In this document: piece by piece, positions 2,295-39,113 of the stretch
How the letters are laid out: every line of letters begins with the position of its first letter
How positions within the stretch are numbered: position 1 is the stretch's first letter
IMG/VR virus record: IMGVR_UViG_2529293078_000013
Source of the DNA: a virus
Taxonomy: Duplodnaviria > Heunggongvirae > Uroviricota > Caudoviricetes
Reading direction: 5' to 3' (one strand)
DNA: 39,465 nt
Position numbers and translations under genes: made by a program
Notes under the pieces: generated by a model
Seen by the model: only the letters and a program-made list of their open reading frames with translations
Databases searched by the model: none
Told to the model about the DNA's origin: nothing

Positions 2295-2329
2295 CCCGCC
2301 AGCCATATCATGACCGGCGGGATTTTTTT
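2295..2329 (+). terminator. GC-stem hairpin followed by T7 run; intrinsic-terminator-like, oriented for plus-strand transcripts
   Basis: CCCGCC...GGCGGG stem (2295-2300 / 2316-2321) followed by TTTTTTT (2323-2329); abuts the stop of the 682-aa gene. Confidence 0.35.
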
Positions 2330-4376
2330 ATTCTGTTACCGCTTTTTTCACTTCCACCACAATGCTGTCAATCAGCACCGGGTAAGTTGCATTTTTTGTG
2401 ATATCCGTTACGCGGAGTTTGTCCACCGGGAAAGTTCCTACTGGTGACTGCGTCAGGGTAAACGCGGCACCATCCTGACCATCAATAACCGGAATAACCT
2501 GAAGGCTGTTATTTCCTGCAAAACGGAAGGCCAGCGTATGCCATTCATTATCAAATGCACCAAAGGTTCCCAGTTTCTGGTTATTTGTTGCCACTTTTGC
2601 ATTGTGGTACATCACATTCAGGTCTTTTGCGTCTGTCTGGATGTAGAACGATGCCAGCAGATTATTCCCTGCATCCCCTGTCAGGGTGACACCCTGCGGC
2701 AGAGAGGAAACCGGCCAGTAAAGCCCCATGACATACTGGTTTGCCACCAGGTCGCCAGGTACTTTAAAACGACAACTGATTAAACCACCATTTTTCAGCA
2801 GTTCAGCACCAGTACCGGCATCATGATCCAGATACCAAGATGATTTACCTGTTTCCTTGGTCAGTTTCATTGCCTTACCACCTGTGCCTCCTGCATCACT
2901 GATAATTTCAGCTTTACCGCCAGCCGGCTCCCAGCCCTGGGCTTTCAGATTTCCTTCTGACTCACTGACACGATAAGACAGCAGTGTTGTGGTTACTGCT
3001 TCAGTTTCTGAAGGTGACGGCACTGGTGCTTCAGTTTCAGAAGATGGAACATCGGCTTTTACTGTGGTTCGCCCCGCATGAGTCAGAACTGCCGTGGCCA
3101 GACGGTCGGAAATAATCCCACGACGTGCCCATGAACTGAAATGGCTGGCCCGGTCCGCAGATGTCCAGGTGGCGGCACTGTTACGCCACGTTGAGCCGTA
3201 ATAACCAATGGATTCAATATCCGGGTCTTCTGCCGGATTGTTGGTGGGTACATTCGCGTCATTTTCATCTGTCATTAATGGAACGAAATGAATGTTTTTA
3301 TCTGTTTTGTTTTTGTAGCCGCCATAGATTGCCTGGTATGCCGGTTCATTTTTCTGTTTCCAGAAATACGTGGTATCGCCACAAATCCACGGAACGCCAG
3401 CAGCACTGCCACCGGTACACTGTTCCGCCTGTTCAGCCAGGTCTGCGCGGAATTTTTCCACCATCGCCAGAAACAGCGCGGAATGCTCCGTCGGCTTCGC
3501 ATCAATATCAAACTCGCCCTGCATCCACACCACAGCAAGCAGGCGGTTTTTCGGGTTCTTCGCCAGTGCCGCTTTTGTCCGGCTGATTAAGTCCTTATAC
3601 AGCGGCTTATCCACACCCCAGCGGGCTGAGTCCTCTGAAGCACCCGTGCTGTCACTGTACGTGCCGTCAGCACCCGCCGTGAATGCAGAACCACCACGGC
3701 AGCAGGGAACCAGCAGAATCCCCGCATCTGCCGGAATAAACGGCAGCAGTTTTTTGGCAATGTGAAGCCCCTGACCCACGGTGCCATATTGCCCTTTAGC
3801 CACATCCGCTTTCGGGTGATTTTTTCCACTCATATCCTGCACATCATGCAGACAGTGGTCGGCCAGAATGATGTCGTTATACTGACAGGCTTTACCTCCC
3901 GGCGTGACTGTACTGCGACGGGCTAACTGCATAATACGCGGTTCGGGGCGGTCATATGTCTCCGGCAGTGGCAGACCTTCACCGTAAGCCATACCGTTTG
4001 ACTGACCAGCAAGAACCACCACGTAATACCAGGAAGGGGAGCTGGAAGCAGTTTCATTTCCTGACGGACGGGTATGTGTTTCAGCATTATCCCAGTCTGA
4101 CGGTTCAGCAGTACCGGCAACATCAGCACTTAACGGAATGACCGCACCAATACCCGCTCCGGTAATTTCCACACTCGGATCACCGGATACTGGCCTTACC
4201 CACAGGCAATCCCGTGTATTAAAACTGATGAGACAGTCAGCAAATGTCATTCCTCCTTTTGTTTCGGCCGGAGGAAAGGGAGCCTCAAGAAATGCCGCTG
4301 TACCACCGGAAACTTTAACGGTAAAGTTTCCGGGCATTGATGATAGTTGAACCCATTTGGACGTCATAATATTCAT
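2328..4376 (-). CDS. nanS-p: Prophage NanS-p-like sialate O-acetylesterase (SASA/SGNH-type) with C-terminal lectin-like domain; cargo gene
   Basis: Central region (LAGQSNGMAYGEGLPLPE, VPCCRGGSAFTAG, WMQGEFD, RRGIISDR) closely matches E. coli NanS/YjhS as I recall it; a Pro/Thr/Glu linker and a C-terminal domain follow. Confidence 0.8.
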   Translation of the reverse strand: MNIMTSKWVQLSSMPGNFTVKVSGGTAAFLEAPFPPAETKGGMTFADCLISFNTRDCLWVRPVSGDPSVEITGAGIGAVIPLSADVAGTAEPSDWDNAETHTRPSGNETASSSPSWYYVVVLAGQSNGMAYGEGLPLPETYDRPEPRIMQLARRSTVTPGGKACQYNDIILADHCLHDVQDMSGKNHPKADVAKGQYGTVGQGLHIAKKLLPFIPADAGILLVPCCRGGSAFTAGADGTYSDSTGASEDSARWGVDKPLYKDLISRTKAALAKNPKNRLLAVVWMQGEFDIDAKPTEHSALFLAMVEKFRADLAEQAEQCTGGSAAGVPWICGDTTYFWKQKNEPAYQAIYGGYKNKTDKNIHFVPLMTDENDANVPTNNPAEDPDIESIGYYGSTWRNSAATWTSADRASHFSSWARRGIISDRLATAVLTHAGRTTVKADVPSSETEAPVPSPSETEAVTTTLLSYRVSESEGNLKAQGWEPAGGKAEIISDAGGTGGKAMKLTKETGKSSWYLDHDAGTGAELLKNGGLISCRFKVPGDLVANQYVMGLYWPVSSLPQGVTLTGDAGNNLLASFYIQTDAKDLNVMYHNAKVATNNQKLGTFGAFDNEWHTLAFRFAGNNSLQVIPVIDGQDGAAFTLTQSPVGTFPVDKLRVTDITKNATYPVLIDSIVVEVKKAVTE

Positions 4377-12144: not shown

Positions 12145-14185
12145 TCACATCCAGTCCGTGACCGGACGTGTCATCAATATCAATACTGCGAGCCTGCCAC
12201 CCTTCCGGGGCAACCAGCTCCACACGGGCAGAGGCTTTTTGTACCGCCTGTCCACTGCTTTCATCATCACTGCCCCGTAATTTCTGCCAGGCTTCAGTCA
12301 GCCATCCCCCCAGATAGTTACCGAGATAGCTGCCCACCGTAGAACCAATGGCAATCCCCACAGGTCCGGCTGCCGCCCCCAGCGCACCACCGGCAATACT
12401 GCCTGCAAGAGAGCCGACCGCTTCTCCCTTGTCTGTGGCACTGGCGCTGCCATCCAGCAGAACCGGGGCTGCCATCGCGCCAGCCCACAGGGCACCGCCA
12501 CCCAGCCGGCCGGCCAGTCCACCGGCACTGCGGAAAAAGCCGGAGAAACGCCCCAGCCCCATGCGGCTACCGACAGACGAAAGTAACCCACCGGCGCGCC
12601 CCATCATGCGCCCCCAGAACCCTGCCCCACCAGAAGAGGGAGACGGTGGCACTGGGGACGGTGGCAGGGGAGGCGTGACCGGTCTTCCGCGCCCCGGTCC
12701 GCGTTTCCTGCGGCCCCGCCCCTGACGTCCGCCTGAGGAAGTATCGGTCGCGCCGGTGCCGGACAGTCCTCCTGTGGGCCAGTTTGTTACAAGTACTGGC
12801 TGAACGGCTGCCGGATTTACCCCGGTAAGAAAGTTTATAAAACGTTGCCCTCGTCCCTGAGATGTGCCTGGTGGTGTTCCGGCCGGAGGAGAGCGCCGGA
12901 AAGGTGAAGTCAGGAAGGCCGCCGCTGATAATCCGTATCCCAGCAATGCAGCACCCGGACGTATAATCCCCGTTCCGACAGCCCGCGCCATTTTCAGGGC
13001 ACGGGTGGCGAGATACATGTACAGCAGGTATTTCGCGGCGGTCTGTGCCCCCTGACCAATGCGATCCAGCGCATCACCATAGCCCGCATCCCGCAGAGCC
13101 TGAAGCGTGTCGCGTACCTTTCTGATCGCCTGATAAAACCCTGTCACTGCATCACGGGCATACTCAAAGCCCTGGTTCATGGCTGATGCCGTGCTTTCCG
13201 CCAGGGAATGGTAACTGCCATCAGATTTGGCACTGTCAACCCATGAAAGAAATCCCCTGAGATTACCCTTCAGTTTTTCAAATGGCCCACTGTCCATCAC
13301 ATCCCGGGCAAACTGATCCCAGACGTCACCCATCATGGCCGTCAGGCCACTCCAGGAATTCATTGCGTCCTTTTGTGCTCCCCTGGCCTGTTCCGCCAGC
13401 GTCTGAAATAACAGGCGAATACTGTCCGGCCCAAGCAGCCCTTTTTCACCAAGTTTTCTGACCACTTTCTGGTCCACACCCAGACGATCAGCCAGCACGC
13501 GGTAGGCATTAATGCCGTAGGTGGCAAGAATATTTGCATCCGCCGCCTGAATACTGCCTCTTGCATACATCTGTTTCAGTTGCAGGGATGCCCCCTGTGC
13601 ATCGGACAGTGACCAGCCGCCCACGGCACCCTGATCCTGAAGCATGGTGACAAAATTTCGGGCCTCCCTGTCACTCATACCAAAGCCCAGACTGGACGTA
13701 TATTCCTGCATGACGCCAGCCAGCCCCCAGGTGGTTTCCTTCGCATTCTGTATTGCCCACCTGCGGACATCATCAGTTTTCGCCCGATCCCCTTTGTAAA
13801 GGGAGTTCAGGCGAATCATATAGGTTTCCATCTCCGCTGCCGGGCGAATAAATCCCCGGTTAAAGCCATATACAGCAGCACCACCGGCCAGCATTCCGTA
13901 AAGATTGCTGATCCGCCCGATGGTGCCGGTAATACTGCCCTGAAGACGGTCAAAATCAGAAGTGACATGGCGGATACTGCCCCGCACCCCGGCCAGCGTG
14001 CGCTGCATCCTGCTTCCGAGTACATCTGTTTCCTGCCCGGCACGGCGGGCAGCATTTCCCAGGCCACCCAGCCCCGCCTGGCCGGAGCGTGAGAATGCCC
14101 CCAGCTCCTGTGACCACTGGCGGGATTTGGCTGAGATATTGCCGAGCAAATCAACTATCAGAGATGCTCTGAGATTTCGGGCCAT
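12110..14185 (-). CDS. Tail tape measure protein
   Basis: 691 aa, helical Ala/Gly-rich with a Gly/Pro/Arg low-complexity segment; located between the chaperone and baseplate genes. Confidence 0.75.
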   Translation of the reverse strand: MARNLRASLIVDLLGNISAKSRQWSQELGAFSRSGQAGLGGLGNAARRAGQETDVLGSRMQRTLAGVRGSIRHVTSDFDRLQGSITGTIGRISNLYGMLAGGAAVYGFNRGFIRPAAEMETYMIRLNSLYKGDRAKTDDVRRWAIQNAKETTWGLAGVMQEYTSSLGFGMSDREARNFVTMLQDQGAVGGWSLSDAQGASLQLKQMYARGSIQAADANILATYGINAYRVLADRLGVDQKVVRKLGEKGLLGPDSIRLLFQTLAEQARGAQKDAMNSWSGLTAMMGDVWDQFARDVMDSGPFEKLKGNLRGFLSWVDSAKSDGSYHSLAESTASAMNQGFEYARDAVTGFYQAIRKVRDTLQALRDAGYGDALDRIGQGAQTAAKYLLYMYLATRALKMARAVGTGIIRPGAALLGYGLSAAAFLTSPFRRSPPAGTPPGTSQGRGQRFINFLTGVNPAAVQPVLVTNWPTGGLSGTGATDTSSGGRQGRGRRKRGPGRGRPVTPPLPPSPVPPSPSSGGAGFWGRMMGRAGGLLSSVGSRMGLGRFSGFFRSAGGLAGRLGGGALWAGAMAAPVLLDGSASATDKGEAVGSLAGSIAGGALGAAAGPVGIAIGSTVGSYLGNYLGGWLTEAWQKLRGSDDESSGQAVQKASARVELVAPEGWQARSIDIDDTSGHGLDVNVWNGGNYGLW

Positions 14186-20414: not shown

Positions 20415-20590
20415 TCCGGCAGCATAAGCCGGGAATTTTCAGGGCGGGTTTTGCGGGATTTCAGGAAGTGCTTCCAGGGGAAAAATACAAAGGCGCTTCA
20501 CGCAGATTTTAAAGCCCGTTAAATACAGGTTAGAAAATCACGACACGCGCCTGAAGGGGGTAAGGTAATGCATTTGCATACCTTAAACAA

Positions 20591-26628: not shown

Positions 26629-26933
26629 TGTGTTTTTTTCCTTACCGCCTGCTCCAGCAGCAGTTCGTTCTGATAGGAGACAGAGCGGAGCGTGGCGTTC
26701 GTGGTTTTCAGTTCACCCCGCAGGGTCACGATTTCCACATTCAGACGGTTGACCTCGGCTTCTGTCGGCAGTGACGACAGGCGGGTTTCCACCTTCTCAA
26801 CGCGGTCGGAGAGTTTTTCAAAGGCCTCGCGGGGGACAAACGTTTTGCGCATCAGCGCCATGAATATCCCGCCAGCGGTTGCCGTCGCCGAAAGGATCGG
26901 CACAACATAATCTTTAACGATGCTGACCCACAT
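26625..26933 (-). CDS. Membrane protein at the Mu gp25 position (possible releasin-type lysis protein)
   Basis: 102 aa with N-terminal hydrophobic helix then coiled-coil-like region, at the end of the lysis cassette. Confidence 0.5.
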   Translation of the reverse strand: MWVSIVKDYVVPILSATATAGGIFMALMRKTFVPREAFEKLSDRVEKVETRLSSLPTEAEVNRLNVEIVTLRGELKTTNATLRSVSYQNELLLEQAVRKKTQ

Positions 26934-27141
26934 GACGGGCCTCCATGATGTTCTGGCAGTTCACACAACGGATGGCATCCGGCACAGCAACAAGACGTGC
27001 GGCGGGGATCTCTCCGCCACAGTCCGCGCAGACACGTCTGCCCGGAGCATCCATTGCCCGGCGCTTACGTGTCAGCCGGTTACAAAGGGCGCGTTCTGAT
27101 CCCCGCTCCATCACAGCCTGAGCACGATCTGAATCATCCAT
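26914..27141 (-). CDS. TraR/DksA-type C4 zinc-finger protein (start at internal Met 27141 preferred)
   Basis: CADCGGEIPAARL...RCVNCQ zinc-finger motif. Confidence 0.6.
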   Translation of the reverse strand: MDDSDRAQAVMERGSERALCNRLTRKRRAMDAPGRRVCADCGGEIPAARLVAVPDAIRCVNCQNIMEARHVGQHR

Positions 27142-27523: not shown

Positions 27524-27875
27524 TCGTGGCCGCCTCACTGATTTGTGAAATGAGTTGCAGGGTGTGCTGCTGATTTGCCAGCACCTGACGCGCCTCATCC
27601 CGCTCACGCACAAGCACCTGATTATTGTCTTCAAGGCGCTGCGTCTTCTGGTGCATTCCCCATATAGCGGCAACCAGTACAGCGATAATCCCCAGCGCCG
27701 CCATGCACGCCCCGGCAATCAGGGCCGGTAAGGCATTATTCACCGCAGCCACAGGACACCCCGTAACAGCAGTACCGCACACAGCAGCGCTATCATGAGC
27801 GGTCGCCAGAAGCGGTTCAGACTTTCGGCAAGTCGTAGCGACATAACCATTCATCCGCCGAACGGCGGGCCTCAA
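27354..27875 (-). CDS. i-spanin (Rz-like), start uncertain
   Basis: Hydrophobic TM segment ALIAGACMAALGIIAVLVAAIWG followed by a Gln/Glu-rich coiled coil. Confidence 0.5.
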   Translation of the reverse strand: MRPAVRRMNGYVATTCRKSEPLLATAHDSAAVCGTAVTGCPVAAVNNALPALIAGACMAALGIIAVLVAAIWGMHQKTQRLEDNNQVLVRERDEARQVLANQQHTLQLISQISEAATNEKQQNIQHSEGQQSVVRRSLEAVPAASAPVPDDVADRVRRAVCEIRACEAGADPR

Positions 27876-28317
27876 GGCCGGGGAGTTTCACCCCCTTTGA
27901 ATAAATCCAGCGGATATACTGCTTACAGGACGCGGGCATCTGCCCGGCATTGATCAGGCGCAGAAGCGTGGAGTTGCGAAAGTTCGTTTCACCGGCCCAG
28001 AAGATCCACGAAGCCAGCGCCACCGTCTGACCACGGGTAAGCGGCACCTGAACACGCCGATCAATGGCCGCAAAGGCCCATTTCATGTCCTTTTCCAGTA
28101 GTTCCAGGCATTCTTCATCTGTCAGGGTCATACCCGGTTTCACATCCGGGCCGGTATGGCCGTAACAGATGGTGGGTGTACCGGTGGGATCGATATACGT
28201 GGAGTTTTCTTTCCCTTCCCAGTAACCGGTGTAATGCGTGGCAATCGTGAACGTCCCGGCACCGGCCAGAACAAGGGCAATCAGCTTTTTACGCAGTGGT
28301 GCGGGGAGTTTTGGCAT
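27817..28317 (-). CDS. SAR endolysin (lysozyme-like) resembling Mu Lys
   Basis: N-terminal signal-anchor LIALVLAGAGTFTIA; CYGHTGPDV and AAIDRRVQVPLT match Mu Lys motifs as I recall them. Confidence 0.8.
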   Translation of the reverse strand: MPKLPAPLRKKLIALVLAGAGTFTIATHYTGYWEGKENSTYIDPTGTPTICYGHTGPDVKPGMTLTDEECLELLEKDMKWAFAAIDRRVQVPLTRGQTVALASWIFWAGETNFRNSTLLRLINAGQMPASCKQYIRWIYSKGVKLPGLEARRSADEWLCRYDLPKV

Positions 28318-28388
28318 TGTTACGCTGTCTCATGATGTTCTCTGAGTCAGCGTAACGGTGAAGGAGAGGCGGCAGGCTTTGCGGAATA

Positions 28389-28814
28389 TCAGAAAAGTGG
28401 CGGTTGCGTTCTTACCAGATGCAGACGGCGCTGTTCGCGTATGACGGTATAAATCTGGGTTTCTGACATCCGGTAATGGCGGCGAAGGGATTCAATTTTC
28501 TCGCCCCGGTCCCAGCGCGAAAATATCTCATTGTTTCGCAGCTCGGCAAAGAGAGATTCCCCGACCGGCAGGTAATAACCCCGTCCGCCCATATAGGCGG
28601 CCTGAGCCGCAGCCACCTTGCGTGCCAGTTTACCGGCCAGTACCGGCTCAATCCCCTGACGCTGAAGTTCTGCGCCGGTGACTTCAACCAGTTCTGACAG
28701 GGTCCGCGGCCAGTTCTTTTTGAGAACATCATCAGGGATGTCATCAAGGCGGTCGATAAGGGCGTGCAGTTGCTCACTGTCACCACCAAACATGCTCATC
28801 TGAGTTTCTGCCAT
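28389..28814 (-). CDS. Mor/C-family late-transcription activator (the only recognisable member in this phage)
   Basis: C-terminal region GGRGYYLPVGESL...LRRHYRMSETQIYTVIREQRR resembles the Mor/C HTH; lies after the early terminator and before lys. Confidence 0.75.
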   Translation of the reverse strand: MAETQMSMFGGDSEQLHALIDRLDDIPDDVLKKNWPRTLSELVEVTGAELQRQGIEPVLAGKLARKVAAAQAAYMGGRGYYLPVGESLFAELRNNEIFSRWDRGEKIESLRRHYRMSETQIYTVIREQRRLHLVRTQPPLF

Positions 28815-28856
28815 ATCAGCCTCCGGTTCTCGCGTTCCCGGTAAGTTTAAAATAAA

Positions 28857-28880
28857 AATCCCGCGTTGTGGCGGGATTTG
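28857..28880 (-). terminator. Rho-independent terminator at the end of the early operon
   Basis: 9-bp stem AAATCCCGC/GCGGGATTT with 6-nt loop; on the minus-strand RNA it is followed by UUUAUUUUAAA. Confidence 0.65.
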
Positions 28881-28883
28881 GAG

Positions 28884-29393
28884 TTAACGGGGAAGTGATT
28901 TTTCATACTGCCTGCAAACGGCGTCATACCCCATCAGCGTGCGTTCGGGCATTCCCATCGCGGCCAGCATTTTGCGGCGGTGCCATCGCTTGAGACGCTC
29001 CAGCACATCTGAGGCCAGGGCGGGGTGTTGCTCCAGCCACTGCCAGTTTGCCACACCTTCGCCGCCGTTCTGCGCGGCCGTCTGCGATTTCACCCAGCGG
29101 TTAAGGGCGGTTTCCGCACCATCGGTGATAAAGCCCTGCCGGTGCATCACCTTCCAGATGGCGCGAATTTTGGCGGTCACCGTACCCGGTTTTAAGGCCC
29201 GGTTAACCGGGTTCTGACGCACTTTAAAACCGCGTTTTTTGAAAACATCCAGCACGCGGGATAACTCATCCGGTGACATATCCCGGCAGCTGGTTTTGCC
29301 GGTAGCTGCCAGCAGCGCGGATGTATAAGTCTCATCATCCAGGGCAAGCTCGCGCTTTGCCACATGAATGGCGGATATCAGTTTTCCTCTCAT
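28884..29393 (-). CDS. GemA-like protein (Mu gp16-position)
   Basis: 169-aa basic protein, last early gene before the terminator. Confidence 0.6.
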   Translation of the reverse strand: MRGKLISAIHVAKRELALDDETYTSALLAATGKTSCRDMSPDELSRVLDVFKKRGFKVRQNPVNRALKPGTVTAKIRAIWKVMHRQGFITDGAETALNRWVKSQTAAQNGGEGVANWQWLEQHPALASDVLERLKRWHRRKMLAAMGMPERTLMGYDAVCRQYEKSLPR

Positions 29394-30213: not shown

Positions 30214-30606
30214 TTAATCAGTTTCCAGTGCTTTGCTACGGGCAACAGCCTCACACTCAAAAAATACCGACTCCGGCACACGCTCCTTTAATTCACGAAC
30301 AAGAAAATCATTAACGAGTTCATGACGTCTTATATTTCTTTCCTTTTCCTCCTGGCGCAATACAGCAAGGCGGTATTCAACAGTCCGGCGTTGTTTCTGA
30401 AAGACAGCCAGTGCTTTTCTGGCAGAGTTACGCCATGTATCATCGCCACAGGGTTCGTATTCAAGCTGAAATTTAATCTCTTCAATGGTTTCTTTTATTT
30501 TTGCCAGCAAGCTAAGACAGTCGCTGATTGTCTTCAGTTTTTCATTATCAATATAACTTCTCACGCATTCACCTCCCGTCATTCCGGTAAAGCTGAAATA
30601 TGGCAC
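30214..30606 (-). CDS. Hypothetical protein
   Basis: 130-aa ORF with coiled-coil-like centre. Confidence 0.45.
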   Translation of the reverse strand: MPYFSFTGMTGGECVRSYIDNEKLKTISDCLSLLAKIKETIEEIKFQLEYEPCGDDTWRNSARKALAVFQKQRRTVEYRLAVLRQEEKERNIRRHELVNDFLVRELKERVPESVFFECEAVARSKALETD

Positions 30607-30890
30607 CAGTGCGTCACCTGTCCGTCCTCATCTTCAAGGCAGGCTCCGGTTTCTTCATCAATAAAAAAGCCTTCATACCCCATATGGCCGATGCGCAGTT
30701 CCTGTTGGTCACCATACTGAACAATCAGCACGACAGCCTCCATATCAGGCGGAAATGCGTCATCCAGTGAATGCCAGGGATAACCGCGCAAATCCCCGAA
30801 ATAAACACCGGTCAGCGTTCCGCCACAAACCGACATTCCGGCGGCACATACCAGAGGCTCGTCTGATTCAACAAATAATGTCGTTATCAT
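30579..30890 (-). CDS. Hypothetical strongly acidic protein (candidate DNA-mimic/anti-restriction)
   Basis: 103 aa with about 19 Asp/Glu against 2 Arg and no Lys. Confidence 0.45.
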   Translation of the reverse strand: MITTLFVESDEPLVCAAGMSVCGGTLTGVYFGDLRGYPWHSLDDAFPPDMEAVVLIVQYGDQQELRIGHMGYEGFFIDEETGACLEDEDGQVTHWCHISALPE

Positions 30891-31438
30891 GGCATTAACT
30901 CCCGTAATACAACATCTTCGGCAGTCCGGCGATGGTGATAAATAAAATTCACCGTACTCTCGGATAATTCAAATTTCTCGCCTATTTCCCGGAAGGTAAG
31001 ACGTCGTGGTGATTCAGCATCCCGTAATTCACGAATAAGATGAACATCATCATCAGGTATACGGGTGAAGGGCAGCAACTCTCCGTATTTTTTCATGCTT
31101 ACGCCAATATATCGCGCCCGTTTGTGGACAGGATCCCGGTCTCGCCCCAGATATTCTCCTATTTGCTTACCGGTCATCGTTCTGGCATTTTTTCGGATAA
31201 ATTTATCTTCATCATGTTTAAATCTTGGACGTTTGCATTTGAGCAACTCCGGGTAAGTACCGCGTAATAAAACAATCCGGTGATGTACACCCCAGAAACT
31301 TCTTTTTACCCTGACAGCAATATCCTTAACCGGGGTGGATGGATAAAGCGCAATCAGCAGTGCATCTTCTTCAGGTGTCCACGCACGGACATGAGCGGGT
31401 GCACGGCCTTTTCGCCCCATGGGTTGTAAAATCATCAT
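30887..31438 (-). CDS. Putative DNA-binding regulator with repeated HTH-like segments
   Basis: WTPEEDALLIALYP..., GKQIGEYLGRD..., LTFREIGEKFELSESTVNFIYHHRR. Confidence 0.5.
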   Translation of the reverse strand: MMILQPMGRKGRAPAHVRAWTPEEDALLIALYPSTPVKDIAVRVKRSFWGVHHRIVLLRGTYPELLKCKRPRFKHDEDKFIRKNARTMTGKQIGEYLGRDRDPVHKRARYIGVSMKKYGELLPFTRIPDDDVHLIRELRDAESPRRLTFREIGEKFELSESTVNFIYHHRRTAEDVVLRELMP

Positions 31439-38361: not shown

Positions 38362-38528
38362 ACTTCCTCTATTCTAAAAAGTTACCCGCGCGGATATTCG
38401 TGCGGATATCTGTACGGGTAAATAATAGAACAAACAAAAGAACCAAATCAAGGTATTTTGTTCTTTTTATTCTTTGCGGTGTTTTTGTTATTAATATCAA
38501 TAAGATAAATACAAAGGAACCTGAGAGC
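38362..38528. promoter_or_regulatory. Divergent early/repressor promoter-operator region with repeats
   Basis: Inverted repeat TTACCCG...CGGGTAA flanking direct repeats GCGGATAT x2; second inverted repeat AAAAGAAC...GTTCTTTT with 16-bp spacer; AT-rich. Confidence 0.5.
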
Positions 38529-39113
38529 ATGAACATGAAAAACAGTTCTTTTCTCGACGAAGGAAAAGAACCAGTGATCGAACGGATTTTTCGTCTTGCA
38601 GAGCGTTACAAATCGAGAAGTGAGGCGGCTAGAGCATGGGGAATAAACGTTCAGACATTGCAGAACTACTACAAAAGGAGAAACAATCAGCCGCCACCAC
38701 AACCAAGAAAGCACCATCTCCAGAACATTGCAGAAAGAGAACATGTATCTATGGAGTGGCTAGTCAATGGTTATGGTGATGAGCCAAGCATGAAAAAAGA
38801 ACCAATTGAACAAACAAAAAGAACAAAAAAACAAAGAATTGATGATAGTGATTCCATCATCATGAGGGCGTGGGACTCGCTAACTTCATCTGAACAAGAG
38901 ATTTTGTCCAACTTATTGATCAGAAAAGGGGCCGAACTACTAACCGTTTTGCTTGATACAGATATTCAAAAACTGCACTCATTGAGCGGAGTCAAAAGAG
39001 CACTAGCATTGAGTCTACAAGAGTTACCCGATGATACTGTAAGAGAGATTTATGAAGAATGTGAAGCTAAGGTTAATCATTTAAATGTAACCCAGAAAAA
39101 GGCTGGTGCGTAA
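38529..39113 (+). CDS. c: Mu c-type lysogeny repressor (the six-frame ORF starts at 38400; start at Met 38529 preferred, AGGAA RBS)
   Basis: Divergent from ner next to the left end; N-terminal HTH; C-terminal region resembles the Mu repressor C-terminal domain. Confidence 0.7.
   Translation: MNMKNSSFLDEGKEPVIERIFRLAERYKSRSEAARAWGINVQTLQNYYKRRNNQPPPQPRKHHLQNIAEREHVSMEWLVNGYGDEPSMKKEPIEQTKRTKKQRIDDSDSIIMRAWDSLTSSEQEILSNLLIRKGAELLTVLLDTDIQKLHSLSGVKRALALSLQELPDDTVREIYEECEAKVNHLNVTQKKAGA

Follow-up and report, generated by a model that had tools for sequence, protein, structure and literature searches.

In phage Mu, late transcription is reached by way of a relay in which Mor drives a middle operon, composed of gp18–20 and C, and in which C then acts on the late promoters. 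Both regulators belong to the Mor/C family of small proteins (~100–150 amino acids) that combine an acidic N-terminal half and a basic C-terminal half with a linker and a C-terminal HTH (PMC2582627). The dyad of Mor is placed on the hairpin of the early terminator, and the site of C is related to this dyad (PMC4287176). Mu C furthermore needs two clamp-binding motifs for its function, an N-terminal Qx[D/E][L/M]F and a C-terminal QPDLF (PMC12867686). For Mu-like phages of Mannheimia, it was noted by the authors that mor adjoins lys and that C is absent (PMC4553209). The DNA analyzed here, a stretch of 39,465 nucleotides that we refer to as the window, represents an Sp18-type Mu-like prophage of E. 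coli whose gene order, according to Pfam scans, is that of Mu. Missing from it are traits of the three-tier Mu programme, namely the second paralogue, a mor gene overlapping gemA, gp18–20, and the terminator between C and lys.

A Single Mor/C-Family Gene in an Sp18-Type Prophage

The long ORFs of the window are located on the minus strand. The early order is c, followed by ner, the genes for transposase A and for B, a Kil-like gene, gam, a gp11-like gene and gemA; downstream follow one Mor/C gene, the genes for lysozyme, spanins and terminase, the head and tail genes, gin, and com/mom. With the repressor gene c near one end and mom near the other, the window contains the prophage in full. At the DNA level, a prophage in E. 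coli 2000-3039 agrees with it completely (100% identity) and prophage Sp18 of O157:H7 Sakai to ~98%; among 5426 complete E. coli genomes, 232 have matches of the window type. According to its annotation, a Mu-like element with 99% identity has inserted into an Stx2c phage, accompanied by a target-site duplication. Sp18 itself has been judged intact and Mu-like (PMC2669165). The features of the regulatory region and of the gene I promoter are compiled in Table 1.

Table 1. Positions of regulatory features and of the adjoining genes in the window.
Feature	Position	Strand	Remarks
Repressor gene c	38400–39113	plus	
gemA, last gene of the early operon	28884–29393	minus	Pfam GemA, 3.2e-30; 44% identical to Mu GemA
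Intrinsic terminator of the early transcript	28846–28879	minus	9-bp stem AAATCCCGC/GCGGGATTT, 6-nt loop, U-tract
Putative -10 (TAAACT) of the activator's own promoter, P(C)	28844–28849	minus	6 nt past the hairpin; no good -35
Ribosome-binding sequence GGAGG before the activator gene	28820–28824	minus	
Sole Mor/C-family gene (141 aa), C-type late activator	28389–28814	minus	Pfam PF08765, 1.2e-31
Predicted activator box of the lys promoter, CTGATATTCCGCAAAGCCTGCC	28371–28392	minus	overlaps the stop codon of the activator gene
Putative -10 (TACGCT) of the lys promoter	28349–28354	minus	
lys-proximal hairpin GTTACGCTG...CAGCGTAAC	28319–28356	minus	1 nt before the lys ATG; no U-tract
lys, endolysin, first late gene	27817–28317	minus	Pfam Phage_lysozyme, 6.3e-37
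Predicted activator box of the gene I (protease/scaffold) promoter, CTGAAATCCCGCAAAACCCGCC	20443–20464	minus	
Putative -10 (TATGCT) of the gene I promoter	20421–20426	minus	6 nt before the ATG of I (20414)

Some features lie apart from this region. A gene for a 75-amino acid TraR/DksA-type zinc-finger protein (26914–27141, minus strand; Pfam, 5.4e-12) is embedded among the lysis and packaging genes; in Sakai its annotation reads RNA polymerase-binding factor, and a gene of this type occupies the same place in Pasteurella Pmp9. Between gin and mom (2328–4376, minus strand), a protein of 682 amino acids combines a sialate-O-acetylesterase-like (SASA) domain with DUF6645 and is without counterpart in Mu. 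Both com (at about 900–1100) and mom (209–946) are present on the minus strand. A GATC-rich palindrome, AATCGATCG-N7-CGATCGATT, is found just upstream of com, no late-type box was detected near it, and a plus-strand ORF of 154 amino acids (1215–1679) occupies the place where the mom promoter is expected. In the G–I intergenic region (20480–20590, minus strand), the first ~110 nt are almost invariant among variants and the next ~30 nt variable; Mu has a strong gyrase site at the position matching the conserved stretch. None of the Rfam families matched when searched against the whole window.

The protein encoded upstream of lys is a clear member of the Mor/C family, scoring 109.3 bits with PF08765 (cut-off 24.9) over profile positions 2–107 of 107, 4.3e-49 with a family HMM of 147 sequences, and 1.3e-44 with phrog_532 ('late transcriptional activator') of the PHROGs collection. 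By BLASTP it is 39% identical to Mu C over 137 amino acids (105 bits), compared with 27% identity and 51 bits for Mu Mor; likewise, it reaches 95.8 bits (2e-26) with PDB 9l0x ("Late transcription activator C") versus 39.9 bits (3.8e-9) with 1rr7 (Mor). The N-terminal half has a pI of 4.75 and the C-terminal half a pI of 9.97, in which Mu C and Mor are alike, and the GGRxxYLP linker is kept, with G76, G77, R78, Y81 and P83 being invariant or nearly so in an alignment of 21 sequences. Both beta-clamp-binding motifs are kept as well, as QMSMF (residues 5–9) and QPPLF (residues 137–141), the serine in the third position of the former fitting the general clamp consensus QL[SD]LF rather than the D/E of the family. 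The gene also takes the position of C, directly upstream of lys and downstream of the early terminator; in the 71-nt gap between it and lys, no terminator was found. On these sequence grounds, we regard the gene as an orthologue of Mu C and not of Mor. With a C orthologue in the position of C, the parts that are missing relative to Mu are mor and the gp18–20 portion of the middle operon. The late-activator role as such is not new, the gene being already annotated in Sakai (ECs_4961) as 'positive regulator of late transcription protein'.

The first-pass annotation had described one Mor/C-like gene followed by lys, without a recognizable second member of the family, and our searches agree with it on either point (for the Pfam matches of the two genes, see Table 1). 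When Mu Mor, Mu C and the window protein were compared by phmmer, with filters off, to 909 six-frame segments of at least 25 amino acids, the best other match had E = 0.17. With the 147-sequence family HMM, the next match in the window after the known gene had E = 1.5; Pfam scans of 30 ORFs returned one Mor match and no second, and the RefSeq annotation of the identical prophage lists one Mor/C member only. When applied to Mu, this HMM picks up Mor (5e-34) as well as C (1.4e-47), which makes the absence of a second paralogue from the window meaningful. The finding that the annotation had named as contrary to its view, a second Mor/C homologue among the early ORFs, was thus not encountered in the six-frame and HMM searches.

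Related loci, drawn from viral contigs (a scan of genome contigs returned no relatives), share this layout. A single Mor/C match was obtained within ±10 kb in all 33 loci whose activators are 52–99% identical to that of the window, and also in 48 of 50 loci from two further lineages, amounting to 81 of 83 in total. The two loci with a second Mor/C-like match (L059, 10808–11083, 8e-5; L063, 8462–8683, 1.8e-23) carry it as a short segment downstream of the main gene, which may represent a fragment or partial duplication in each case. According to the HMM, B3 and BcepMu have one Mor/C gene each, next to gemA; tblastn gave one match each in Pasteurella Pmp9, Shewanella MuM16-1 and Pseudoalteromonas HS6, and KS10 is annotated with one activator adjoining gemA. 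Apart from the Mu/D108/SfMu group, Mu-like phages as a rule have one activator, and the single-activator layout is an ordinary one that is already in print (PMC4553209). The simplified one-step cascade that had been proposed for the window therefore survives as the best reading, in the sense of a shortened early-to-late programme, but not as a peculiarity of this phage, since 81 of the 83 loci as well as B3 and BcepMu likewise have one activator.

Candidate Late Promoters Upstream of lys and Gene I

A position matrix derived from Mu's four C sites had top scores of 11–12 in a scan of the window, against a mean shuffle maximum of 12.5. Matches by eye to Mu Plys and PP were dropped as evidence, given that this matrix gave no signal. 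Because it drew a blank, boxes were sought de novo, from two promoters and their relatives. The boxes thus identified upstream of lys and of gene I have 18 of 22 bases in common and are separated by an identical 16-nt gap from a TAYGCT hexamer. Within the window, the 22-nt motif occurs only at these two promoters; 0.01 chance matches would be expected, for a pattern that was derived from these very two. Among close variants, the lys spacer changes in sequence but never in length, and the gene I box is conserved with variable sequence in its neighbourhood.

In the lys box, GCAAAGCC precedes the -10 by 20 nt, the distance also seen in late promoters of Mu. When sequences were anchored on the -10, an nnAAnnCC-type element was found exactly 20 nt upstream of it in 12 late promoters (four of Mu, six from three other lineages, and the two of the window), with the variants ATAAYCCC, GTAATCCC, GGAATCCC, GTAAACCC, CAAATCCC, GTAAATCC and GCAAARCC; Mu Pmom (ATAACCAC) is the single partial exception among the 12. 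Since this box geometry is the one expected for C-dependent promoters, we take the two sites to be the lys and I promoters. From their sequence, then, we infer two late promoters, one upstream of lys and one upstream of gene I, to which the activator would bind. Proteins of the Mor/C family act as oligomers on a dyad ahead of promoters devoid of a -35, where they recruit RNA polymerase, and late activators of the C type are expected to have their sites near -43.5 in the lys, I, P and mom promoters; the two window boxes are candidates for such sites.

The search of the window for a box belonging to a tail-gene promoter (the PP equivalent) or to mom yielded none, and a matrix built from the two window boxes revealed no third site, the best other score being 13.8 compared with ~40 for both boxes; the region before the activator gene scored 6.7 in that register. 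Two shorter patterns were discarded. The 8-mer AATCCCGC is borderline, with 6 matches where 2.2 would be expected and with as many in 2 of 100 shuffles, and its copies at 14120 and 25554 are intragenic with no -10 at a suitable distance. CAAADCCYGCC has 4 matches versus 0.24 expected, but three of these had defined the pattern.

At gene I, the 6-nt spacing between the -10 and the ATG is likewise present in three other lineages (L034, L043, L044) despite different sequences. This geometry suggests that the protease/scaffold mRNA may be leaderless, unlike the gene I mRNA of Mu, which has a leader of ~26 nt. The lys-proximal hairpin has an RNA folding energy of -20.1 kcal/mol (z = -6.3) and occurs in all close variants. 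The putative lys -10 shares bases with its left arm, so that only transcripts initiated farther upstream would be able to fold into it; in this way, it may block translation of lys from read-through RNA.

The Early Terminator and Expression of the Activator Gene

The terminator hairpin, AAATCCCGC-CACAAC-GCGGGATTT at 28879–28856 of the minus strand, begins 4 nt past the gemA stop codon and is directly followed by TTTTTATTTT. Its RNA folding energy amounts to -13.5 kcal/mol (z = -4.5; 0 of 200 shuffles as good), that of the Mu early terminator to -12.2, which bears out the earlier description of gemA as being followed at once by a strong terminator. On the plus strand there is no T-run after the stem, so that termination is to be expected in the phage sense only. 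The left arm of the hairpin carries the late-box core AATCCC. An intrinsic terminator requires pairing and structure, and no fixed sequence. Four lineages (the window, L035, L043 and L044) share the arms AAATCCCGC and GCGGGATTT without any change, although their loops and flanks have nothing in common and the activators of the other three have no more than ~45–57% identity to that of the window. As termination needs pairing only, yet the arms are identical, some other constraint acts on them; besides a site for the activator, this could be a site for another binding protein or a conserved early/late recombination linker.

The junction between gemA and the activator gene differs in several relatives. 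In L018, an insert of ~800 bp (2563–3330) is located upstream of the hairpin, which means that the hairpin goes with the activator gene there and not with gemA. L034 and L036 have an extra ~480 bp between hairpin and activator gene. In L024 (8494–10000), a ~1.5-kb element with inverted ends (TAATGCC.../...GGCATTA) and an 11-bp duplication (GCCACAGCGCG) is positioned inside the terminator loop and parts gemA from the activator gene. Judging from L018, L034 and L036, cargo genes seem to be acquired preferentially at this junction.

Only 41 nt lie between the terminator hairpin and the start codon of the activator gene, and a scan of this interval for a consensus sigma-70 promoter found none. Of the 6 positions in the putative -10 of P(C), 4 agree with the consensus, as do 3 of 6 in the -35 region, GCCACA, so that a weak activator-independent promoter is possible as well. 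Equivalent -10 hexamers are found 4 nt past the hairpin in L035 (TATACT), L043 (TATACT) and L044 (TATAAT). Relative to the boxes of the late promoters, the AATCCC core is displaced by 1–3 bp away from the -10, the value for the window being 3 bp. Viewed as a dyad, the hairpin is centred near -30, a repressor-like position, meaning that protein binding could also repress rather than activate. A Pm-like geometry was rejected, as a hairpin centre at -43.5 would put AACGCG at the -10.

The explanation that we favour, and consider fairly probable as a whole, combines a C orthologue, a two-tier programme and an activator promoter of its own that is primed by read-through. With this protein as the only Mor/C member of the phage, the lytic programme would have two tiers, versus three in Mu. 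Early transcription from the ner-A-B operon would end at the terminator after gemA, behind which the activator gene would form a small unit of its own. Slight read-through of the terminator would supply the first activator protein, and the elements found at the hairpin suggest that this protein may then turn on its own promoter. Upon accumulation, the activator would fire the late promoters, which offer a usable -10, no -35, and the GCAAARCC part of the box 20 nt upstream. For the autoregulation that we infer here, the left hairpin arm would serve as the activator's own box; the right arm would be constant because it must pair with the left one to terminate early transcripts. The same nucleotides would then be early terminator and activator site, much as the Mor site of Mu is placed on the early terminator. 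Given that both clamp motifs are retained, coupling to replication could supply the delay that is provided by Mor in Mu. One may go further, more tentatively and with rather less than even confidence, and propose that the strongest activator site resides in the terminator arm, where the same 24 bp would both stop and start transcription, that the weaker lys and I boxes would be served later, that the clamp would tie the process to replication, and that Mor would have originated as a duplicate within one lineage and then have taken over the site embedded in the terminator.

One has to consider whether the activator could be made entirely from early read-through, with no dedicated promoter and with the hairpin acting as a leaky terminator that provides a low and delayed dose. 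The hairpin indeed has the features of a textbook intrinsic terminator, the 41 nt to the start codon harbour no detectable sigma-70 consensus promoter, and in B3 and BcepMu the single activator gene simply closes the early operon, where it abuts or overlaps gemA. What this scheme would leave unexplained is the identity of the arms across four lineages, although termination depends on structure alone, and the good -10 hexamers 4–6 nt past each hairpin, among them a perfect TATAAT; even L034, with its extra ~480 bp, still has a -10-like TATCGT past the hairpin. We consider expression by read-through alone rather unlikely. The first-pass annotation had also raised the idea of a non-homologous middle regulator, which found no support in our analysis: no conserved alternative middle regulator was detected among the early genes. 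The candidate for an early protein acting in place of Mor would be a D5-like HTH regulator of 183 amino acids (30887–31438, minus strand), which is encoded by the only other regulator-like early gene besides ner and c, matches phrog_323 ('transcriptional regulator, D5-like') with 7.2e-57, shows weak C-terminal HTH matches in Pfam, and is kept in Sakai Sp18. However, it is absent from Mu and from the clade with 57%-identical activators, which keeps the gemA-hairpin-activator-lys layout including the hairpin, and in L029 it is only 70% identical with the hairpin arms unchanged. The early genes common to both clades are ner, A, B, the Kil-like gene, the gp11-like gene and gemA, with Ner, the early repressor, as the only known transcription factor. 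A substitute for Mor of this kind is improbable in our view. The 183-amino acid protein, whose N-terminal portion has a Myb-like motif, is the product of an accessory gene; as a hidden relative of Mor it was rejected, its match to the Mor/C HMM (E = 5.9) being at noise level.

The palindrome might instead be an operator for negative control, bound by the activator or by another phage or host protein, or a recombination linker between modules. A dyad centre near -30 overlaps the core promoter, a typical repressor position, and the differing insertions beside or within the hairpin in L018, L024 and L034 are of the sort to be found at a module junction; on the other hand, the left arm comes within 1–3 bp of the position of the late-box half-site and, with only 3 of 6 consensus matches in the -35 region, some activator is expected. 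To us, a purely negative or linking role seems decidedly doubtful. Last, mor and gp18–20 are missing between gemA and C relative to Mu, as would be the case in a defective Mu derivative that lost mor and the middle genes, or if a second activator were encoded outside the window. This we hold to be extremely improbable: the span from c to mom corresponds to a whole prophage, the layout is conserved in the 232 E. coli genomes and in 81 of 83 related loci, and the phage works with this layout, in that Sp18 counts as intact in the literature (PMC2669165) and the near-identical element in an Stx2c phage is annotated with a target duplication.

Implications and Comparison with Known Systems

The Mor-then-C relay is a feature of Mu, D108, SfMu and close kin, which corrects an expectation centred on Mu; most transposable phages, including the Sp18-type prophages that are common in pathogenic E. 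coli, use one activator. What our study adds is the prediction of promoter boxes and of a terminator-embedded, possibly self-activating promoter. If such a promoter does drive the activator gene, the locus would be a compact case of one DNA element serving as stop and start signal, a one-protein circuit could still give ordered expression, and Mu's two-activator cascade would appear to have arisen by duplication. A practical bearing lies in the induction of Mu-like prophages that hop into Stx phages.

Mu C (gp21; PDB 9l0x, 9vw8) is the closest characterized homologue of the window activator. It has the same length and resembles it in the charge of the two halves, the GGRxxYLP linker, the C-terminal HTH, the clamp motifs and the location of the gene upstream of lys. 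Its late promoters are also like the predicted ones of the window in having the box 20 nt upstream of the -10; the box is GCAAARCC in the window versus ATAAYCCC in Mu, hence the failure of the Mu site matrix. The Mu C gene differs from that of the window in belonging to a Mor-driven middle operon and in having its own terminator after it. Mu Mor (gp17; PDB 1rr7) is a member of the same family, at only 27% identity and 51 bits. The Pm region of Mu is comparable to the window insofar as the hairpin of the early terminator is found at the same place as the promoter region that follows the early operon. However, mor overlaps gemA and thus lies upstream of the terminator, whereas the activator gene of the window lies downstream of it, and the dyad of the Pm hairpin is centred at -43.5, that of the window near -30 relative to the best -10.

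Where the region can be aligned, Sakai Sp18 (ECs_4961) has 98% DNA identity to the window; it is devoid of two small early ORFs of the window (30214–30890) and has a different short ORF there. A single Mor/C gene near gemA is furthermore found in Mannheimia phages 3927AP2, phiMhaMu2 and SuMu, in Pseudomonas B3 and D3112-like phages, in Burkholderia BcepMu and KS10, in Pasteurella Pmp9 and in Shewanella MuM16-1. Unlike in the window, the activator gene of B3, BcepMu and KS10 abuts or overlaps gemA without an intervening terminator. In Pmp9, it is preceded by a 130-nt AT-rich region that lacks the hairpin of the window and is followed by a terminator. In the Mannheimia/SuMu phages, lys comes directly after the activator gene, as it does in the window (PMC4553209).
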